Source of the DNA: an uncultured Chloroflexia bacterium
GTDB lineage: Bacteria; Chloroflexota; Limnocylindria; Limnocylindrales; CSP1-4
Assembly (NCBI GenBank): GCA_963734535.1
Contig: CAVTHS010000014.1
Location: 275,654 to 339,653 of the forward strand
Direction of reading: 5' to 3'
Length of the DNA stretch: 64,000 nt
The number at the start of each line of letters is the position of its first letter. Position 1 is the stretch's first letter. Below are positions 1 through 8,961 of this stretch, in pieces. Made by a program: the position numbers and the translations under genes. The notes beneath the pieces are model-generated. The model saw only the letters and a list, made by a program, of their open reading frames with translations, did no database searches and was not told where the DNA came from.

Positions 1-1817
1 ACCATGTTCGAGATGCCCATCGCGAACGCCAGGCCAAGCGCGAGCGGCAGGTTGTTGGTCAGGCCCAGGCCGACCACCGCGAGGCCGTACACGGCGTAGC
101 CGCCGATCACCATCCGGCCCTTCGCGATCCGCGAACCCAGCAGGCCGATCACGAACCCGCCGAGCAGGTTGCCGACGCCGATCGCCGTCTCGATGAAGGC
201 GTAGGCGGCGGTCCAGTCGAGCGACCCGAGTCGCAGGACCACCTTCGCGTAGAGCGGCGTGAGCGCGATCGTCGCGCCGACCGTCAGCTGCCCCGCGACC
301 GCCTGCAGCGTGTTGGCGAAGAGGACGGGCTCGCGACGAAGGAATCGCCAGCCGGCGGACAGGTCGGCGCGGATCCCGGCCAGCCCGGGGACGGGGTCGG
401 CCGACCCAGCCGAGCGGACCACCGGCGGGATCACCACCACCATCACCAGGAGGGCCGACGCGACATACGACACGGAGTCGAGCCAGAACGCCAGCGGCAG
501 CGCGCTCCCGAGGAACGCCACGAACAGCCCCGCGAAGGGATAGCCGATGACGTCGGCCAGGGTCTCGTTGAGCCATGTCGCGGCGTTCGCCGACACGAGC
601 TCATCCTCGTGCACGACCCTCGGCAGGACGGCCGTCCGGGCCGGCCGGAAGAAGATCGAGACGGTCGTCAGGAGGAAGACCAGCGGGTAGGCCAGCACGA
701 CGCTCACGCCGACGCCCGCGGGAATGAGCACGACGATCCCCGCGCGAATGAGGTCGCTCGCGATCAGGACGTGCTTCTGGTTCCAGCGGTCGACCAGGAC
801 GCCCGCGAGCGGTCCGAAGAGGAGGTTCGGCAGCGTCGCCGCAACGAACGTCAGGGCGCCCGCGATCGCCGAGTTCGTGGTCCCGTAGACAAGCGCCGCC
901 AGCGCCACCTGGTGGATCCGGTCGCCGAAGAGGCTGATCACCTGCCCCGTCTGCAGCGCGGAGAAGGATCCGTTGACTGCGAGCCGAACGTACGGGTGAT
1001 GGCGCGCCCGGATCGCGACCGTCCGGAGGACGCCGGGCAGGAGCGGTGCCGTGACGCCGCCCGACGACATCGGCGCCGGTGTTGCCAGCCCCGCGCCCGA
1101 GCCGCCCAGGATCATCGGCCGCTCCAGCGCAGCGATGCCAACCAGGCTCGCCGCGAGGCCGGTCCCTGCGCGCACGCCGCCCGTCTGCTCGGAGCCGGGC
1201 GATCCGGCCAGGACCACCGGCTGGCTCGGGTCGGCGCTTCGGAGCGTGCGGCCGTCCGACCCGACCTCGTCCGCGTGACGCACCATGCCCGCGAACAGGA
1301 AGAACCCGAGTCCGACGTCGAGGATCACGTCGCCGATCGAGAGAACATTGCGCAGGAACGGCAGCGGAACCGGGATCACGTCGCCCAGCGGGCCCGCCGA
1401 CCACATGAAGGCGGCGTCCAGGCTCGCCGGCAGGATCACGTGGATGGGCGAGAGGACGTCCGCCCGGCCGAACCCGGCCGCGACGAGGCTCGGTTCCCAG
1501 ATTGGCATGAAGCCGCCGTTCACCAGGATCGCCGTGGCGTTGAGCCCGATCCCGACGAGCGCCAGGCTCATGCCCGGCCTCGCCCGGTTCGCCCACAGCC
1601 CGATGGCAAGGACGCCATAGGCGGCGGCAAGAAGCGGAACCCGCAGCGTCTCGGCGATGGCGACGTCCCGGCCCAGCGCCGCCTCGGTACCCAGGCGAAG
1701 GGCGAGCGCGCCGAAGATCACGAGCGGCCAGCGGAGGCGGATCGAGATGAGGTTGTCGATGCGGCCGCCGACCGCGAACCCCGCGACCAGCCCGATGATC
1801 AGCCCCGCGATCAGCAC
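1..1817 (-). CDS. DUF5317-like membrane domain fused to an MFS transporter (3' end beyond window edge)
   Basis: Manual translation from GTG at 1817: MLIAGLIIGLVAGFAVGGRIDNLISIRLRW...LNATAILVNGGFMP...LGDVIPVP...SIGDVI, a linker, then MFS motifs GQVISLFGDRIHQVAL and GPLAGVLVDRWNQK. The frame at position 3 matches the start frame. Start overlaps the HD-GYP stop (GTGCTGA). Confidence 0.8.
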   Translation of the reverse strand, partial: MLIAGLIIGLVAGFAVGGRIDNLISIRLRWPLVIFGALALRLGTEAALGRDVAIAETLRVPLLAAAYGVLAIGLWANRARPGMSLALVGIGLNATAILVNGGFMPIWEPSLVAAGFGRADVLSPIHVILPASLDAAFMWSAGPLGDVIPVPLPFLRNVLSIGDVILDVGLGFFLFAGMVRHADEVGSDGRTLRSADPSQPVVLAGSPGSEQTGGVRAGTGLAASLVGIAALERPMILGGSGAGLATPAPMSSGGVTAPLLPGVLRTVAIRARHHPYVRLAVNGSFSALQTGQVISLFGDRIHQVALAALVYGTTNSAIAGALTFVAATLPNLLFGPLAGVLVDRWNQKHVLIASDLIRAGIVVLIPAGVGVSVVLAYPLVFLLTTVSIFFRPARTAVLPRVVHEDELVSANAATWLNETLADVIGYPFAGLFVAFLGSALPLAFWLDSVSYVASALLVMVVVIPPVVRSAGSADPVPGLAGIRADLSAGWRFLRREPVLFANTLQAVAGQLTVGATIALTPLYAKVVLRLGSLDWTAAYAFIETAIGVGNLLGGFVIGLLGSRIAKGRMVIGGYAVYGLAVVGLGLTNNLPLALGLAFAMGISNM

Positions 1818-3232
1818 GGCTGGGCGGGGGTCAGGAAGCGTCCGTGGGTGGGCCGCCCGGCGCAGCCGGCGGAATCATCCGCGCCGCGGCCTGGGCGAGG
1901 AGCGGGACAGGTCGCGACTCGGTCGGGCGCCCGGGCGTCTGCCACGTCCTTGGCCCACGACGTGCGCACGAACGCGTCGACCATCACCGGATCGAACTGG
2001 ACGCCCGCGTACTTGCGCAGCTCCGCGAGTGCCTGCTCGCGCGACAACGGCCGCATCCGATACGGGCGCGCCGACGTCATCGCCTCGAACGCGTCGGCCA
2101 CGTGGAGCACGCGCGCCAGCTTGGGGATCTCGTCGCCCATGAGCCGATCCGGGTACCCGGAGCCGTTGTACCACTCGTGGTGGTGCCGGATGATCGGCAG
2201 CTCCGGGGCCAGCTTCCCGACGTGGGCAATGATGTTGGCCCCGATCACCGGGTGCCGGTTCATGAGCGCCCGCTCGTCCCGCGTCAGCTTGTCCTGCTTG
2301 AGCAGCACGCTGTCCGGCACCCCGATCTTGCCGATGTCGTGCAGCAGCCCGCCCCACTCGAGGGCCTGGATCTCGTCGTCCTTCAACCGCATCACGTGCC
2401 CCATGTCCACCGAGATCAGCTGCACGCGCTCGCTGTGACCGGACGTGAAGGTATCCCTCGCATCGACTGCCTGCGCGAGTGCCCCGATGGTCTGCGTGAA
2501 CATCTCCTGCACTTCGACGACTTGACGAAGTGCGACTCGCATGATGTAGATGGGCAGGACGCGAAGAAGAGAGTTGCCCACCATCCGACCTCGAGAGGCG
2601 ATAGATCTGCGTCATCAGCCAAGCCAGGGGAGCGAGTGCAACCCTGTCGCGAAGAACGTCGGTCGATCCCCGAGCAAGACCGTTCTGGTCGATTGCTGCG
2701 TTCGAAGGGCGACCGTTATTGATGTGAAGCTCACGTTGAGCGCAAAGAACACAGACGCAGCCCGGCGAGCGTCGATACGAAGTCGCCGGCCGGAGCGGTT
2801 GATCCCGACGCCCGAGTTCCGTCAGGACGATCTGACGCCCGAACGTCCCGCTGCGATCGCAGGAACAACAAGTCCCGCGTGGTTGGCAAGGGTTCCGTAC
2901 CACGGGACCCGACCCGAGTCTCCCGATACTCCTTGTCCCGATGGCGCGACGATCGCAGCCTGCGGCCTGGTCCTCCCAGACTCATCGCGGCGACGATTGG
3001 CGCGATCGACGTGTTGATGAGCGTAGCCCCGCGCCATCGGACTGGCAGAGCCGAGGCTAGGAGGGTCAGCCCCGTCCAGAAGACGATCCCGGCGAGGACG
3101 TCGATTGTCTCGGAGCCAAACAGGTCCAGCCGAATCTGCTATCTGACAGGAATCACGACGACTCGTGACGACTAGCACAAGGTGCGCCGACCGTCACGAG
3201 CTCGCAATGTAGATGCTGAGGCTCTTAGGCAT
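1811..3232 (-). CDS. HD-GYP cyclic-dinucleotide phosphodiesterase with N-terminal multi-TM sensor region (5' part frameshifted)
   Basis: ORF 1811-2584 has LLHDIGK and HHEWYNGSGYP. Upstream hydrophobic fragments lie in shifting frames back to ATG 3232 (MPKSLSIYIA), preceded by GAAGGGA. Confidence 0.8.
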
Positions 3233-3310
3233 CCGATCCCTTCAGGCGACCGTCGGCTGTCCTTGGACTGTAGACGTACCCGGACGAGCCGGAAGGTGAG
3301 ACAGAAGTAC

Positions 3311-3400
3311 CTAGAACCCCTTCAGTGATGCTCCCCCAGCAATAACGGCCGCGCCGATAGGCCGACGGTACCGCGAGGAGGGCGCAGTCCGAGTCTTCAT
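3311..3400 (-). CDS. 29-aa putative signalling peptide precursor MKTRTAPSSRYRRPIGAAVIAGGASLKGF
   Basis: Manual translation ATG..TAG. Basic N-terminus, hydrophobic/Gly-Ala C-half, aromatic C-terminus. The middle may be distorted by compensating indels. Confidence 0.65.
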   Translation of the reverse strand: MKTRTAPSSRYRRPIGAAVIAGGASLKGF

Positions 3401-3430
3401 CACTGGAGACCTAGCTCCCGTCCCCTGCCG

Positions 3431-3463
3431 TCAGAAGCCCTTGGAACCGAACTCGGGACCCAT
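3431..3463 (-). CDS. 10-aa micro-ORF MGPEFGSKGF
   Basis: ATG..TGA with GGAGG (3471-3475) 7 nt upstream; same KGF C-terminus as the adjacent peptide. Confidence 0.55.
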   Translation of the reverse strand: MGPEFGSKGF

Positions 3464-3614
3464 CGTGTGCCCTCCAATGGGTTTCCGTGCCCCCGCGAAA
3501 TCACGAAAACCGACCTAACAGATTGGTCGGTCGGTTGCACTAGTCGCTCCACCTCCCCCCTAAGTGCCCATTTCGGGAGGAGGTATCAGCGCGTCCGCTT
3601 GTTCACTTTGCTTC

Positions 3615-3632
3615 CTAGTACCGCGGTACTAG
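3615..3632. promoter_or_regulatory. perfect 18-bp palindrome CTAGTACCGCGGTACTAG, candidate operator
   Basis: Self-complementary; intergenic between the regulator 3' end and the peptide ORFs. Confidence 0.4.
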
Positions 3633-3691
3633 TCGGCGAACCGGACTTTAGGCTGCTGCGCGAGCAACGGTCAATACCGAACCCTCCCTAT

Positions 3692-6600
3692 CTAGCCCAA
3701 GAGATCCTCAAGGTGAGGCGGATCAAGGCCGAGGTCCCGCTGACCCAGTGAGTAGTGTCCGTACTGTTCGGCCGCGGCAGCGTAGGCGCCGACCAAGGTA
3801 TAGAGCCGTATCACGGTCTTCTCGACCTCGTCGAGTTGCGGGTCAATCTCAATGGCCCGCTGAGCGAGGCGCATCGCACGATCGATCTGACCAGTGTCTG
3901 CATCGTGCGTCGACCGCGCGCTCCACGATCTCGAGGTATCTCGCGTGCATCGATGCTCTCGGATCGGGGCCGCCCATTCTTCGTAGGTGAAGTCGAGGGC
4001 GAATCGTCCCGAGTAGATCTGTGACACGCGATCGGCCTGGGCCGGGGTCGCGAGAGCGCCGATCGACGCTGCAATACGTCGATACTCATGGCTTCTGCTC
4101 GTAACTAGGTCGGAGTCTAGCCACAGCACATCGGGGTCGTGATGCAGATACCCGGGGCTCAAGTCCTCCGACGTAGTCGGGCTCGAATACGCGACGGAGG
4201 AAGTAGACGGTCTGGTGCAGTGAGTTGGCGGCCTGCTCCGGATCCTGATCCGGCCACAGCGCGTCAAGTACCTGGTCCCGCGTTGCCGACATCTTTGGCT
4301 GAGCTAACAGGAAGCAAAGGAGCGCAAGAGCCTTCCGGCGGATCGTCGTCCCCGGTATCTCCATCGAACCAACCCAGATAACCAATCCGGCCGAGATCGT
4401 CGACATAGACCAAGTCGGCAACTCGACGGGCGAGCGACTTACCGAAGTCTGGATGACGGAGTTGTCCCTTGGACTCCTTCGAAGCCAGCCGGAGTAGGCG
4501 AACGTCCTCTTTGGTCCCGATTACCTCCAGGAGGCGGGCGGCTTGCCATCGCTCTCGGCCTCCTGGAGCTGCAACGAGAATGCGAATTGGCGATTCGCCA
4601 GCGACGCGGGCGTGACTCAGCCTCTGCAGCGGACGACGTCGATCGCAGCGTCGGACAGGTCGGCGATCCTCCGGAGCACTGCCTCTGCCCGAACGCTCAA
4701 GAGCGCGCGATCGCGGAGCCCGATGGCGCTGACGATCGCCGACGCTTCGTCCGGCGTGGCAGATAGTCCACGCAACAGCGATGCGTCGATAAGGCGACCC
4801 AGCGCGCTGCTTGCCGCCGGGCTAACGTTTCGAGCGCTAGTCGAGACGCGGGATCAACCGTTCCGAATGCGAGAACTCGCGAATTCAGTGCGCCAGCAGA
4901 CGCTGGACGTGGAAGGCGGGGTATCCCGTCAGGACTCCGCAGGCATTCGGCGGATATGTGAGCCCGCGTCGCCTCGCCCACCTCACCAGGTCTTCCAGCC
5001 GCGAGAGCTGTCTCCGGTGAGAAGCTGGAAGCACTCCAGGGAGGCATCTGGAGCACCCAGAAGGTCGGCCTCCGCAGCAGTCTGAGAGGCGCGCGTCCGG
5101 ATCGTCGTAGGCTCCAATGATCTCGGCGCCCTCGACGAGGCTCTCAAATCGCGTCCCGGCTCTCGCTGCCTCGAGCGAGTGTCACGTCCAGCTTCGCCTC
5201 CGCCTCGACCCAATCGCCGTCGTGGGCAAGGGCCCAAGCCTACAGTGTCTGCACCGACGATATTTCCGTTCCCGCGGAGGAGCGGCTAAGCGCATCCACG
5301 GCGCCAGCCGCCCGCGTCGCGGGTTGCGTGCACGTCGCCTCGAGCACGCAACATCCACGCGGCATTCAAGAGCGAGATGCCTTGGTAGTGCCAGTAGCCC
5401 CGCCGCTCGAATCGGGTTGCGAGGTCCGCGATAGGCATGGATCGACACCGCCGAGGTCTCCGTCGACGGGAATGATTCGAGCCAAGTCATGGCATCCGCG
5501 AGGGTGGCGATCGCTCGCCGGTTCTTCCGACAGAGATCGCGCCGCCCAGCGAACGGCGCGTTCGTAGGTCGCCTACCCCATAAGACGCGTTCATCATTGA
5601 CCCCATCGCGATAGCAACGGTCATGCGACCGGTCGCTTCCTCCGACGACACGATCGATGGCACCTGCGGCAGCCGCGGCTGCTCCGGCCGGATCACCGGC
5701 ACGGAGTCGTCCTGATGCCACTATCACGTCGTGCCAGGCGCCGAGGGTGGCGGGGTCGAGATGGGAGGCGAGCTGCTCGGCGTCCTTGTAGGCGCCGGAG
5801 CCGAGGATGACGGGGACTGCCGCCGAGAGGACTCGGACGGCGTCGTCGGCCAGGTCGGCGGCGGCGAAGTGGTACGCCGCGACCGACCACGAGGCAGGCT
5901 CCGCGGCGCGCGCGATGCGGGCGTGGATCTGGCGGACCGCGATCGCCCCGACGGCGTCGTGCAGCCGGCCCTCCAGGAACGTCCGGACGAGCGGGTGGAA
6001 GAGGCGTCCGGCCTGCCCGGTTCGGCCGCGTCGCGACAGGAGACCCGCACCCTCGGCGGCGTCGAGGAAGCCGCGAGCGGCCTCCGGGGTGACCTCGGCG
6101 GCCGCGGACGCGAGCTCCGGCGTGACGACGGCCAGCAGGCAGCTCCGCTCGACGAAATCCTGGGCGGCACGTGGCATGCGCCCGACGACCTCCTCGGCAA
6201 GGTAGTCGTGCAGGTCGCCCTGCCGACCGGACAGGCCGCGGATGACGGTCCGAACCTCGTCGCGCGGCCGCCCGCGGACCACGGACTCGACGAGCCGCAG
6301 CGTGGCCGCCCATCCCTCGGTGGTGCGGGCGAGGTCGTCGAGGAGGTCGCGCTCGAGCGGGTCGTGGTAGGTGTCCCGGAAGAGGCGCTCCGTCTCGTCG
6401 CGGTCGAATCGCAGGTCGTCGGTGCCGATCTCGGCCGCTTCGCCGATTGCGCGGAGGCGGGCGAGGGGGAGCGTTGGCCGCGTCCGCGAGGCGATGACGA
6501 CCGCCAGCCGGTCGGGACCGCGGACCACGAGCTCACGGACGATCTCGCGGATCTCCGGGACGTCGTCCACCTGCTGGTAGTCGTCGAGGACCAGCGCCGT

Positions 6601-7179
6601 GCCGACCACCGCCCAGGCACGAAGCTCCGCCAGGAGTGTCCTGACGATCGCGCTCCGGTTGTCGAGGGTCGCCGCGAGCTCGCGCAGGAGGCCTGCCGTG
6701 TTCGGGGCGAACTCCGGATCGATCTCGCGACCGGCGGCGACGATGTGATGGATGAACACGGCCCAGTCGCGGTCGTGCTCGTCCAGGCGATACCAGAGCG
6801 TGCGCACGCGGGTACGCCGGCTCCAGTCCGCGAGGAGCGTGGTCTTCCCATAGCCCGGCTCGGCGATGACGAGGGCGAGCCGGGACCGCGTCTTCGCGTG
6901 CAGCCAGTCGATCAGCCGGTCGCGCCGGAGCGTCTCCTCCGGGAGCATGGGCGGCTGGATCTTGCCGATCTGGACCGGATAGCCGAAGACTTCCACGTCG
7001 TCCTGCTGGGCAGCGCTCGGAGTCCGATGCGAGACGGGACCCGGCCCAACCGGGACGAGGCGTGTCGGGACCGTCTGCGGATCACGGGCGAGCGGGTGTG
7101 CCGACCACCGACCGCCCACCTGGGCGTGGGCGGGGGTCAGGGAAGCCGGGCCGGGAGCCGGGGAAGCCATCGCGGCCAT
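3692..7179 (-). CDS. MalT-like STAND ATPase transcriptional regulator with TPR-like middle and C-terminal wHTH/BTAD; 3' half fragmented by frameshifts
   Basis: KIQPPMLP..RDRL, Walker A AEPGYGKTT, LVLDDYQ, TEGWAATLRL, DYLAEEV in 5182-7179. KALALLCFLL..TRDQVLDALWP..NSLHQTVYFLRR in 4086-4421. YSGRFALDFTYEEW..AIEIDPQLDE in 3692-4267. Confidence 0.8.
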
Positions 7180-7273: not shown

Positions 7274-7480
7274 TCAGGCGCCCTCGTACTCGAAGCCGAT
7301 CTTGAGATCGACGCGGTACTCGACGATCTCCCCGTTCTCGACCGCGGCGGTCGACTTGACGACCTCGACCGTCCGGATGTTCCGGACGGTCCGAGAGGCG
7401 GTCGCCACGGCCTGCCGCGCGGCGTCGCTCCACGATTTCGGGCTCGTCCCGACCATCTCCCGGATGATGATCACGCCCAT
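7274..7480 (-). CDS. dodecin family flavin-binding protein
   Basis: 68 aa, VGTSPKSWSDAA...GEIVEYRVDLKIGF pattern. Confidence 0.9.
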   Translation of the reverse strand: MGVIIIREMVGTSPKSWSDAARQAVATASRTVRNIRTVEVVKSTAAVENGEIVEYRVDLKIGFEYEGA

Positions 7481-7602: not shown

Positions 7603-8961
7603 TTACGGGGCCGCGCCCGCGTAGCGCTCGCCGGCATAGCTGACGAAGCGCGTCTGGCTCTTCTTGAACCAGAGGTCAACCTCGCCGGTGGGGCCGTTGC
7701 GGTGCTTGGCAAGCCGGAGCTTGACGACCTCGCCGTCCGCATCCTGGTCCTCGCCCCGCTCCTTCTCGCGCCACAGGAACACGACCAGGTCTGCGTCCTG
7801 CTCGATTGCGCCCGACTCGCGGAGGTCGGAGAGCCGGGGCTCCTTCGACTCGCGCATCTCGGGCTGGCGCGACAGCTGCGAGAGCGCGACGACGGGAACG
7901 CGAAGCTCGCGGGCGAGCGCCTTCAACCCGCGGCTGATCTCCGAGACTTCCTGGACGCGGTTCGAATCGCGCGCGGTGGATGACGCCTGCATGAGCTGGA
8001 GGTAGTCCACGATCACGAGGTCGAGGCCGACCTCCGCCTGCAGCCGCCGGGCCTTCGTGCGCAGCTCCATGGTGCTGATGTTCGGCGTGTCGTCGATGTA
8101 GATCGGCGCTTCGGACAGGCCGGTCATGGCCTTGGAGACGCCCACGAAGTCCATCTCGTCGAGGAAGCCCGTGCGCAGACGCTGGCTGTCGATGTTCCCG
8201 ACCGAGCTGAGAAGCCGGAGAACGAGCTGCTCCTTGCTCATCTCCAGGCTGAAGATCCCCACGCTCTTGCGGGGCGTGTTGCTGATCGCGGCGAACTCCG
8301 CGATGTTCAGGGCGAGGCTGGTCTTGCCCACGGATGGGCGAGCGGCGATCACGACGAGGTCCGACGGCTGCAGGCCGGTGGTGAGCGTGTCGAGGTCCGC
8401 GAAGCCCGTCCGGATGCCGCTGATCTCGCCGCGGTGGGTGTGCAGGTAGTCGAGCCGGTCGAACGCCTCGTGGAGGAGCGTCCGGAGCGGGCTGAACCCG
8501 GCGGCAACGCGGCGCTCCGAGACGGCGAAGAGCTCCGACTCGGCGCGGTCGATCGCTTCCTGGACTTCCGGCCCGTCCTCGTAGCCGATCCCGGCGATCT
8601 TTCCGGCCGCCGCGATCAGGTTTCGCAGCACGGACTTGCGTTCGACGATCCGGGCGTACTGGGCGGCGAAGACGGCGGTGGGGGTCTGCTCGGAGAGCGA
8701 CGAGAGGTACGCACGGCCGCCGATCTGCTCGAGGTCCCCGGCTCGCTCGAGCGCCTCGGCGACCGTGATGATGTCGATCGGCTCACGGCGCTCCCAGAGC
8801 TCCACCATCGACGCGTAGATGCGGCCGTGGGCCTGGCGGTAGAAATCGTCCGGGTGGACGATGTCGGCGACCTCGATGATCGCGTCGCGATCGATGAGGA
8901 GCGCTCCGAGGACGGACTGCTCGGCTTCGATGCTCTGGGGTGGAAGGCGGTCGAGGGACAC
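7603..8961 (-). CDS. dnaB: replicative DNA helicase
   Basis: PPQSIEAEQSVLG, AARPSVGKT, VDYLQLM, SQLSR, DLRESGAIEQDAD, AKHRNGPTG; no intein. Confidence 0.98.
   Translation of the reverse strand: MSLDRLPPQSIEAEQSVLGALLIDRDAIIEVADIVHPDDFYRQAHGRIYASMVELWERREPIDIITVAEALERAGDLEQIGGRAYLSSLSEQTPTAVFAAQYARIVERKSVLRNLIAAAGKIAGIGYEDGPEVQEAIDRAESELFAVSERRVAAGFSPLRTLLHEAFDRLDYLHTHRGEISGIRTGFADLDTLTTGLQPSDLVVIAARPSVGKTSLALNIAEFAAISNTPRKSVGIFSLEMSKEQLVLRLLSSVGNIDSQRLRTGFLDEMDFVGVSKAMTGLSEAPIYIDDTPNISTMELRTKARRLQAEVGLDLVIVDYLQLMQASSTARDSNRVQEVSEISRGLKALARELRVPVVALSQLSRQPEMRESKEPRLSDLRESGAIEQDADLVVFLWREKERGEDQDADGEVVKLRLAKHRNGPTGEVDLWFKKSQTRFVSYAGERYAGAAP

Follow-up and report, generated by a model that had tools for sequence, protein, structure and literature searches.

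What does a membrane-bound enzyme of cyclic di-GMP (c-di-GMP) turnover respond to, and what controls its synthesis? The question is raised by a locus at positions 1 to 7179 of a 64,000 nt stretch of DNA, here called the window, from an uncultured Chloroflexia bacterium of the order Limnocylindrales (lineage CSP1-4; GenBank assembly GCA_963734535.1, contig CAVTHS010000014.1, positions 275,654 to 339,653 of the forward strand). On its minus strand follow one another a gene for a STAND-type regulator, a c-di-GMP-II riboswitch, two very small open reading frames (ORFs), called micro-ORF 1 and micro-ORF 2, a gene for a membrane phosphodiesterase of the HD-GYP type, and a gene in which a DUF5317 domain is fused to a transporter domain of the major facilitator superfamily (MFS). 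Many membrane enzymes of the HD-GYP and GGDEF-EAL kinds have MASE-type domains; to our knowledge no signal is identified for them, nor do we know of any study of c-di-GMP signalling in Chloroflexota. We consider it very likely that a c-di-GMP riboswitch here controls an operon with the gene of a c-di-GMP phosphodiesterase, and that the operon is therefore a feedback device. That a small-protein layer is built into this feedback operon is the overall explanation that we find best, and we hold it with moderate confidence.

A conserved locus in Limnocylindrales

The source genome is a metagenome-assembled genome (MAG) of 14 contigs with 89.9% completeness and 7.1% contamination, in which DUF5317 occurs as a single copy. 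We found DUF5317 in 28 of 36 genomes of the same genus and in none of 24 genomes of a small-genome sister family. For comparison, 20 loci of the same genus were gathered, 19 of which have an alignable leader, together with nine more distant loci of Limnocylindrales type (seven of them with an aptamer at gathering score, their DUF5317 being about 50% identical). A wider set of 55 DUF5317 loci was obtained by a pattern search with one genome per species and was compared by tblastn and by eye. The initial annotation, which had read the locus as a peptide-signalling system, described five co-oriented units on the minus strand, and these are confirmed by ORF calls and Pfam matches. Its two micro-ORFs ending in KGF are real as well and are conserved beyond chance, in the genus as well as at greater distance. 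In 17 of 18 genus loci the units follow one another as in the window: STAND regulator, micro-ORFs, HD-GYP, DUF5317-MFS. In the closest relative, locus L050, whose regulator is 93% identical to that of the window at the N-terminus, all three genes are intact and encode a regulator of 1155 aa, an HD-GYP protein of 465 aa and a DUF5317-MFS protein of 682 aa. Riboswitch, micro-ORFs, HD-GYP gene and DUF5317-MFS gene form a layout that is conserved throughout Limnocylindrales.

The leader carries a c-di-GMP-II riboswitch

Scanning with the Rfam model RF01786 yielded a c-di-GMP-II aptamer of 61.4 bits (gathering score 53.5, E = 4.5e-12) that covers the full model (positions 1-84 of 84). Of the 20 genus loci, 18 have such an aptamer at a distance of about 1.7 kb upstream from DUF5317; of the other two, one ends at a contig edge and one has aptamers of the c-di-GMP-I type. 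Among the distant loci, RF01786 reaches or exceeds the gathering score in seven of nine, and the remaining two score 46.5 and 37.7 bits. Upstream of the aptamer a single sigma-70-like promoter site was found where 0.1 were expected, with a -10 block that is conserved in the leader alignment. Between this site and the aptamer stands a hairpin of seven pairs, which is kept, G-U variants included, in 19 sequences. On the other side, a terminator-like hairpin followed by a U-run has its 5' arm within the 3' segment of the aptamer, and both arms are kept in 19 of 19 aligned leaders. Because the nucleotides of this 5' arm are needed by the ligand-bound aptamer, the bound aptamer and the hairpin should be mutually exclusive, from which we infer an ON switch: binding of c-di-GMP would prevent termination.

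The start codon of the HD-GYP gene is found 276-288 nt past the aptamer in 16 of the 19 leaders, those in which the start motif was recognised; in the window, where the start was placed by homology, the distance is 288 nt. In the soil metatranscriptome run X15, we observed a summed contig depth of 139-215 over positions 3372-3659 compared to 0-13 over the coding regions. This pile-up is a hint that the leader is transcribed, and it may reflect abundant short leader transcripts of related bacteria.

Two further observations concern riboswitch classes in other loci. In the genus locus with c-di-GMP-I-type aptamers (L055, genome G033), c-di-GMP-I-GGC and c-di-GMP-I aptamers (1584-1670 and 2250-2336) adjoin DUF5317 and the c-di-GMP-II aptamer is missing upstream. 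Here one riboswitch class may have replaced the other in place. Three variant aptamers, of the c-di-GMP-II-GAG class, occur within about 5 kb on contig C3 (locus L005 at 1501-1586 and 469-550, locus L006 of the same genome at 1501-1585), with scores of 76.1, 45.3 and 72.7 bits at a gathering score of 40; in L005 each of them stands in front of a methyltransferase-like gene, and these paralogues begin with a hydrophobic segment at the N-terminus.

The riboswitch operon encodes an HD-GYP phosphodiesterase

The membrane-sensor HD-GYP enzyme of the initial annotation holds for its catalytic part, an ORF with a strong HD_5 match (Table 1) in whose translation the HD, GYP and RxY[K/R]-type motifs are visible; its membrane part is not an open frame in the window. 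This half of the gene (about 2585-3231) is spread over three frames; read in combination, they give a polytopic membrane domain. In the literature, the RxY[K/R]-type motif is linked to c-di-GMP specificity, and the three motifs go with hydrolysis of c-di-GMP (10.1101/2021.11.05.467447). On the intact 465-aa protein of L050, the profile of the membrane sensor family MASE9 (PF20972) scores 19.7 bits (E = 8.5e-4) at a cut-off of 24.3. MASE9 itself is described as probably binding a ligand within the membrane, and HdgA of Streptomyces is named there as its only studied member (10.1101/2021.11.05.467447). HdgA is reported to be membrane-bound and weakly expressed, with neither a developmental phenotype nor a known signal (PMC6205966).

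The proposed loop can be stated as follows. At high c-di-GMP the aptamer would be bound and termination prevented; read-through would then supply more of the enzyme that degrades c-di-GMP, giving a homeostatic negative feedback. Where the initial annotation had a peptide as input, the demonstrable input is intracellular c-di-GMP acting through the riboswitch, an element that it did not contain.

Compared to known c-di-GMP-II riboswitch operons (RF01786), the locus has the full aptamer above gathering score and, behind it, a candidate terminator hairpin that shares aptamer nucleotides. It differs in what is controlled, namely a degrading enzyme together with two micro-ORFs and DUF5317-MFS, and in its occurrence in Chloroflexota. 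In Clostridioides difficile, c-di-GMP-II ON switches stand in front of pilus and adhesin genes. A literature search returned no paper pairing c-di-GMP-II with Chloroflexi. With HdgA (Vnz_24090, Streptomyces venezuelae) and TM1467 (Thermotoga maritima) the phosphodiesterase shares the succession of a polytopic membrane domain and an HD-GYP domain; the Limnocylindrales protein stays, by its profile score, below the MASE9 cut-off. Neither of the papers on these proteins (PMC6205966; 10.1101/2021.11.05.467447) mentions a riboswitch, a micro-protein or DUF5317.

Table 1. Features of the locus in window coordinates, and contigs of sequencing run X1 aligned to it
Feature	Position	Strand	Basis or remark
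DUF5317-MFS fusion gene	1..1817 (open frame 3..1817)	-	3' end beyond the window start; full length 682 aa (L003 9769..11817)
HD-GYP catalytic ORF, 257 codons, open frame as assembled	1811..2584	-	HD_5, 3.2e-38, 131.6 bits, cut-off 27.2
HD-GYP phosphodiesterase gene with N-terminal polytopic MASE9-like membrane domain	1831..3231	-	Homology, HD_5
Micro-ORF 2	3311..3400	-	29 codons and stop, end KGF
Micro-ORF 1	3431..3463	-	10 codons and stop, end KGF
Terminator-like hairpin and U-run (expression platform)	3498..3536	-	Sequence, RNAfold, conservation
c-di-GMP-II riboswitch aptamer	3520..3605	-	Rfam RF01786
Conserved 5' hairpin between promoter-like site and aptamer	3615..3632	-	Alignment, RNAfold
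Sigma-70-like promoter site of the riboswitch operon	3645..3674	-	9/12 hexamer matches, spacer 18
Regulator gene: MalT-like STAND NTPase, TPR-rich middle, C-terminal winged-helix and BTAD	3692..7179	-	Pfam, intact L050 homologue
Regulator, BTAD piece	3692..4267	-	Pfam
Regulator, winged-helix Trans_reg_C piece	4086..4421	-	Pfam
Regulator, NTPase ORF, 665 codons	5182..7179	-	Weak AAA_22/AAA_16, Walker A motif
X1 contigs	1504-2177, 2156-2506, 3447-3666		1-3 differences each, 0-1 gap letters each, depth ~14
X1 contig	2477-3476		42 differences, 36 gap letters, depth 7.8
X1 contig	3637-4548		27 differences, 6 gap letters, depth 7.6
X1 contigs, two pieces	4605-5290		27 differences, 15 gap letters, depth 7.3

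Micro-ORF 2 and its predicted place in the membrane

The product of micro-ORF 2 has a basic N-terminus, a single hydrophobic helix and a short tail; five of its small residues are invariant. The length of 29 codons and the conserved tail are found in 15 of 19 genus loci, and the four broken copies all lie in MAGs that have frameshifts in the neighbouring genes too; in the window its middle is scrambled by two compensating indels (insertions or deletions). The five invariant columns are present in 20 of 20 sequences, and the distant loci keep the same five residues. For the coding test we used the last 12 codons in 22 sequences, 21 of them unique. The ratio of nonsynonymous to synonymous variation (pN/pS) is 0.27 in frame compared to 2.20 and 3.11 out of frame, and the variable columns are distributed over the three codon positions as 4/4/12, the period-3 signature of a translated gene. 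As judged from these alignments, micro-ORF 2 is shown to be under purifying selection as a protein. The product matched no Pfam or NCBIfam family at E values up to 10, apart from signal-peptide-like noise.

Small ORFs in front of DUF5317 genes of Anaerolineae (see below) align with each other, and a profile-profile comparison (hhalign) of their alignment with that of micro-ORF 2 gave a probability of 89% and an E value of 2.2e-6 over 23 columns. Because hydrophobic helices stand on both sides of the comparison, this is suggestive of a relationship and no proof of one. Searched against a large protein collection, the Anaerolineae alignment retrieved 18 clusters, all annotated as 'hypothetical'. 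In the Anaerolineae micro-ORFs a proline usually follows directly after the small-residue motif, and proline at that position blocks signal peptidase I. We see an even chance that micro-protein 2 stays in the membrane and partners the sensor, DUF5317 or both.

The co-folding check proposed in the initial annotation for the peptide and the HD-GYP membrane domain was carried out with three chains, each given as an alignment: micro-protein 2 served as the partner chain beside the HD-GYP membrane domain and the domain DUF5317. The median of three runs was 0.52 compared to 0.14 for the best control, in which DUF5317 was retained and the HD-GYP membrane domain was replaced; the verdict was 'weak support'. 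The calibration comprised 80 solved complexes, 58 of which reached the mark, and 110 mismatched pairs, of which 2 did. Passes at or below 0.60, the range of the present score, are weak: they comprise 7 of the 80 solved complexes and both passing mismatches. At least 95% of the contacts are common to the three runs, and the per-residue model confidence (pLDDT) of the partner is at least 74. The low score of the control, from which the HD-GYP membrane domain and not DUF5317 had been removed, hints that the predicted site of micro-protein 2 is on the sensor domain. In the proposed mechanism, the 29-residue single-helix micro-protein would dock on the MASE9-like domain of the phosphodiesterase, on DUF5317 or on both, which we regard as an evenly balanced possibility, and once docked it could tune the activity of the enzyme or the coupling of enzyme and exporter, much as MgrB does for PhoQ. 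The likeness to small membrane regulators of the MgrB/SafA type consists in a single-helix micro-protein beside a membrane sensor and in the weakly predicted docking. It does not extend to a sequence relationship, and here a phosphodiesterase would be targeted in place of a histidine kinase.

The DUF5317-MFS fusion

Matches to DUF5317 (PF17248; 1.7e-22, 80.5 bits, cut-off 25) and MFS_3 (PF05977; 2.7e-22, 79.3 bits in the window and 96 bits in L050, cut-off 27) place the two halves in these families and agree with the fusion described in the initial annotation. DUF5317 forms the N-terminus and is followed by the MFS_3/DHA3-like exporter domain. The nearest NCBIfam model of the MFS half, the DHA3 H+ antiporter TIGR00900, scores 215 at a cut-off of 319.6, so we assign the protein to MFS_3 and to no narrower subfamily. 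Members of the genus retain the fusion, in open frames of about 680 aa. DUF5317 has 1582 representative relatives; among 62 long representatives, MFS_3 is fused in 27 and HD_5 in 2. The predicted model of DUF5317 (pLDDT 94.2, overall fold score pTM 0.87) is a helical membrane bundle with a small four-stranded sheet. Foldseek against the PDB gave no match with E <= 0.001 and no chain of the prepilin/preflagellin peptidase or presenilin type. Among the 50 rows listed in a wide VIA-align search there was no protease or other clear fold match, the best being generic helical bundles (Z up to 6.7), and the ESM Atlas returned no usable match. DUF5317 as a GxGD-type protease, a candidate that we considered, found no support in the predicted fold and was dropped, though not disproved. 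No paper mentioning the name DUF5317 was retrieved in a literature search.

The STAND-type regulator

The domains of the STAND ATPase/BTAD regulator named in the initial annotation are all present, and the separate ORFs of the window proved to be pieces of one broken gene; its intact homologue of 1155 aa lies at 4897..8364 of L050, with Pfam matches to BTAD, TPR and AAA. In the window, the last ~150 residues of the NTPase ORF look out of frame, and the BTAD piece is followed on its 3' side by a stretch of 470 nt without long ORFs. The profile of MalT (NF003420) matches with 3e-54 and 184.4 bits at a cut-off of 537, along the N-terminal 370 residues only, which is short of an equivalog assignment. 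BTAD scores 26.9 bits in the window piece and 28.3 bits in L050 (cut-off 22.1), and Trans_reg_C scores 31.8 bits in the window piece and 23.1 bits in the full L050 protein, above and below the cut-off of 26.2, respectively. Trans_reg_C and BTAD together make up a module of the SARP type. By its domain matches, the regulator is STAND-like in architecture and no MalT orthologue. With STAND regulators of the MalT/AfsR type it shares the N-terminal NTPase with a MalT-like match, the TPR repeats and the winged-helix and BTAD domains. These last two are C-terminal here, in contrast to AfsR, in which the DNA-binding part is N-terminal. The gene travels with the micro-protein and DUF5317 genes across classes of Chloroflexota, and its product is probably the transcription activator of the riboswitch-operon promoter. 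In the distant loci, the TPR-rich middle diverges fastest (27-39% identity, compared to 43-65% for the NTPase and about 50% for the DNA-binding part).

Recurrence in other lineages

Parts of the gene set recur, as the neighbourhood comparison suggested in the initial annotation has now revealed, in Anaerolineae and Actinomycetota. Five Anaerolineae loci (L104, L107, L108, L110 and L101) have a STAND-winged-helix-BTAD regulator followed by a micro-ORF of 33-47 codons and a stand-alone DUF5317 that ends the unit. There the micro-ORF is a gene in its own right, which precedes DUF5317 and has a strong ribosome-binding site, and no HD-GYP, MASE9 or other c-di-GMP enzyme, no MFS and no riboswitch was found in these five loci. 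In a MAG locus (L103), micro-ORF, HD-GYP and DUF5317 stand in a row. In an actinomycetotal locus (L109), a 28-codon ORF lies in front of a MASE9-GGDEF-EAL gene, whose product matches MASE9 with 25.6 bits and thus above the cut-off of 24.3; both run divergently to a gene with the DUF5317-MFS_3 fusion. Three actinobacterial loci have DUF5317 directly behind an EAL gene. What recurs, from these matches, is a micro-protein and DUF5317, in many cases accompanied by a c-di-GMP enzyme of the MASE9 type, an MFS_3 exporter and a STAND regulator; the riboswitch and micro-ORF 1 are additions of Limnocylindrales.

Peptide signalling as an alternative

The most probable of the alternatives is close to the initial annotation, though we regard it as improbable. 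It withstands a refutation that the initial annotation had itself named, the lack of a conserved small ORF or of synteny, as both were found to be conserved. Micro-ORF 2, perhaps also micro-ORF 1, would encode the precursor of a secreted peptide; its short C-terminal tail would be released by DUF5317, exported by the MFS domain and sensed outside by the HD-GYP membrane domain or, once taken up, by the TPR part of the regulator, with c-di-GMP turnover as the output. The micro-ORF 2 product indeed resembles a signal peptide followed by a five-residue tail; each lineage conserves a tail of its own, and the preceding small-residue motif is invariant. The fast divergence of the regulator middle (27-39% identity compared to 43-65% in the N-terminus) also speaks for this alternative, and a TPR regulator, a small ORF and a membrane protein standing in a row across classes of Chloroflexota may recall, by analogy, the receptor-peptide pairs of RRNPP systems. 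What the locus has in common with RRNPP, agr and comQXP systems is a small ORF, signal-like at its N-terminus and with a tail that differs by lineage, beside a TPR regulator and membrane proteins. The proteins that define those systems are absent: the Pfam and NCBIfam matches of the locus proteins include no AgrB, ComQ, peptidase-ABC, histidine-kinase or RRNPP-type family. The regulator is a STAND NTPase with C-terminal winged-helix and BTAD domains, and the output would be hydrolysis of c-di-GMP. As for processing and export by DUF5317-MFS, an exporter-type MFS half (MFS_3; nearest DHA3) speaks for this proposal, but no processing enzyme is recognisable, and the DUF5317 model shows no detectable protease or other known fold. 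Further arguments against a secreted peptide are the proline that usually follows the small-residue motif in the Anaerolineae micro-ORFs, the lack of an MFS partner of DUF5317 in Anaerolineae, and the established input of the operon, which is intracellular c-di-GMP. The matching KGF tails that the initial annotation had pointed out hold in the genus; in distant relatives the two tails differ. We therefore rejected these tails as a common recognition motif, since the match is confined to the genus and no co-variation of the tails was observed across genomes.

Micro-ORF 1 and probable control in cis

Micro-ORF 1 has a Shine-Dalgarno-like purine run 7 nt upstream. Its length is 10 codons in 24 of 26 loci, made up of 17 of the 19 genus loci and all seven distant ones. 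Besides this exact length, the start and the stop are kept, as are the lysine at position 8 and an aromatic residue at the end, and at the last position the observed swap between two aromatic residues needs two nucleotide substitutions. The pN/pS ratio is 0.74 in frame and 1.78 and 0.71 in the other frames, and the distribution of columns over codon positions is uninformative. It is more likely that micro-ORF 1 acts in cis, as a leader ORF that couples translation to the expression of the genes behind it.

One could extend this to both micro-ORFs, with stalling or coupling as a second checkpoint after the riboswitch and with peptides that have no function of their own; we think this quite unlikely. 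Both ORFs do lie within the leader of 276-288 nt between the terminator and the HD-GYP start, and micro-ORF 1 keeps length, start, stop and its last three residues but not its middle. Conservation of this kind is typical of regulatory leader peptides such as those of cat, cmlA and erm and TnaC. The start codon of micro-ORF 1 can, moreover, pair with an upstream segment in a small hairpin. Such a covarying start-codon hairpin looked promising by eye; it was discarded as the listed columns are not clean, which counts against the cis-only explanation as well. Further objections come from micro-ORF 2: the end of its helix and its tail are under purifying selection at the protein level, and its relatives are separate genes with their own strong ribosome-binding sites in loci without riboswitch and HD-GYP.

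Frameshifts in the window

Comparison of the HD-GYP gene of the window with four relatives gave each time the same 14 indel events, all within the first 680 nt, while the catalytic part is free of them. One further indel near the 3' end is a 1-nt frameshift at about 1934, and contigs of runs X2 and X15 are without the extra letter at 1933. This frameshift produces the stop/start overlap from which the initial annotation had read translational coupling of the HD-GYP and DUF5317-MFS genes; in intact relatives the two genes lie 3 to 13 nt apart. From about 5650 downward, the regulator gene falls apart into three or more frames. We aligned contigs of public runs to positions 1500-5800 and used run X1, the best-matching one, in which 0.43 of the sampled words occur (Table 1). 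Between its two pieces at 4605-5290 a block of 85 letters is replaced. As the X1 contigs match the window outside the broken stretch and differ from it inside at half the depth, a mis-consensus of two strains fits better than decay. On these comparisons, the frameshifts of the window are most likely assembly errors and not gene decay.

That the locus is instead a decaying pseudogene cluster, in which the sensor half and the regulator are truly inactivated and a cytoplasmic catalytic fragment is left, would agree with the 14 indels counted over the first 680 nt of HD-GYP, with the additional ones in the regulator gene, with indels that lie mostly outside homopolymers and with a G+C content that falls to 0.60-0.66 over 2500-5500 compared to about 0.70 around, but it is very unlikely in view of the X1 contigs, which are near-perfect on the flanks and diverge at 2477-3476 and on to about 5290 at about half the flank depth, of the scattered frameshifts that the same genes show in other long-read MAGs of the genus, of the clean riboswitch, micro-ORF ends and catalytic domain, and of the 7.1% contamination of the MAG.

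Evaluation of the proposed feedback operon

Several points weigh against a c-di-GMP feedback operon with a small-protein layer. As to the feedback, a simple consensus terminator scan of the leader gave no site, because the loop of the hairpin has 9 nt, and the ON logic is read from sequence alone. The X15 contigs are contig-level evidence that stems from relatives and are no proof of translation. Intact frames in the true genome are deduced from comparison with the X1 contigs and with relatives. As to the small-protein layer, the co-folding result is a weak pass that was obtained with our own alignments and with three chains, unlike the calibration, and comes without a list of contacts. The membrane domain falls below the Pfam cut-off and is for this reason called MASE9-like here, not a member of the family. 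DUF5317 matches no known fold or function, and the substitution pattern of micro-ORF 1 gives no coding signature (0.74 compared to 0.71 in one other frame). The five Anaerolineae loci are without HD-GYP and MASE9, so a MASE9 domain is not the universal partner of the micro-protein.

Neighbouring genes

Beyond position 7179 follow genes for dodecin, DnaB and LexA. The dodecin gene (7274-7480; Pfam 1.7e-24) lies between DnaB and the regulator gene, a place that is kept in 17 of 18 genus loci. The DnaB protein of the window (compare 7603-8961) has 452 aa and no insertion. In six relatives (L043, L040, L042, L038, L044 and L056) the DnaB match is split by about 1.2 kb inserted before the last 40-70 residues, which looks like an intein-type insertion. 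For the genes downstream of the MFS gene (PCMT, PIG-L, a GT87-like gene and two ORFs without a family) we saw no link to the locus.

Implications

Regarding annotation practice, 'pseudogene islands' of frameshifts in long-read MAGs need to be checked against reads. For the biology of c-di-GMP, the riboswitch would be a clean example of a second messenger that induces its own degradation. The locus also offers testable candidates for what feeds MASE-type sensors, namely the conserved micro-protein beside the enzyme, the conserved DUF5317 and the adjoining STAND regulator. A wider reading, which we put forward as doubtful, is that a family of micro-proteins of ~30 to 47 residues might supply, at the membrane, the input or partner that is missing for DUF5317 and for c-di-GMP enzymes of the MASE9 type in Chloroflexota and Actinomycetota, that in Limnocylindrales the pair would have come under a c-di-GMP riboswitch together with a second peptide, of 10 residues, and that the C-terminal tails could also be released as signals read by the neighbouring STAND/TPR regulator. 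If true, this would be a peptide-signalling system outside Firmicutes with the degradation of a second messenger as its output.

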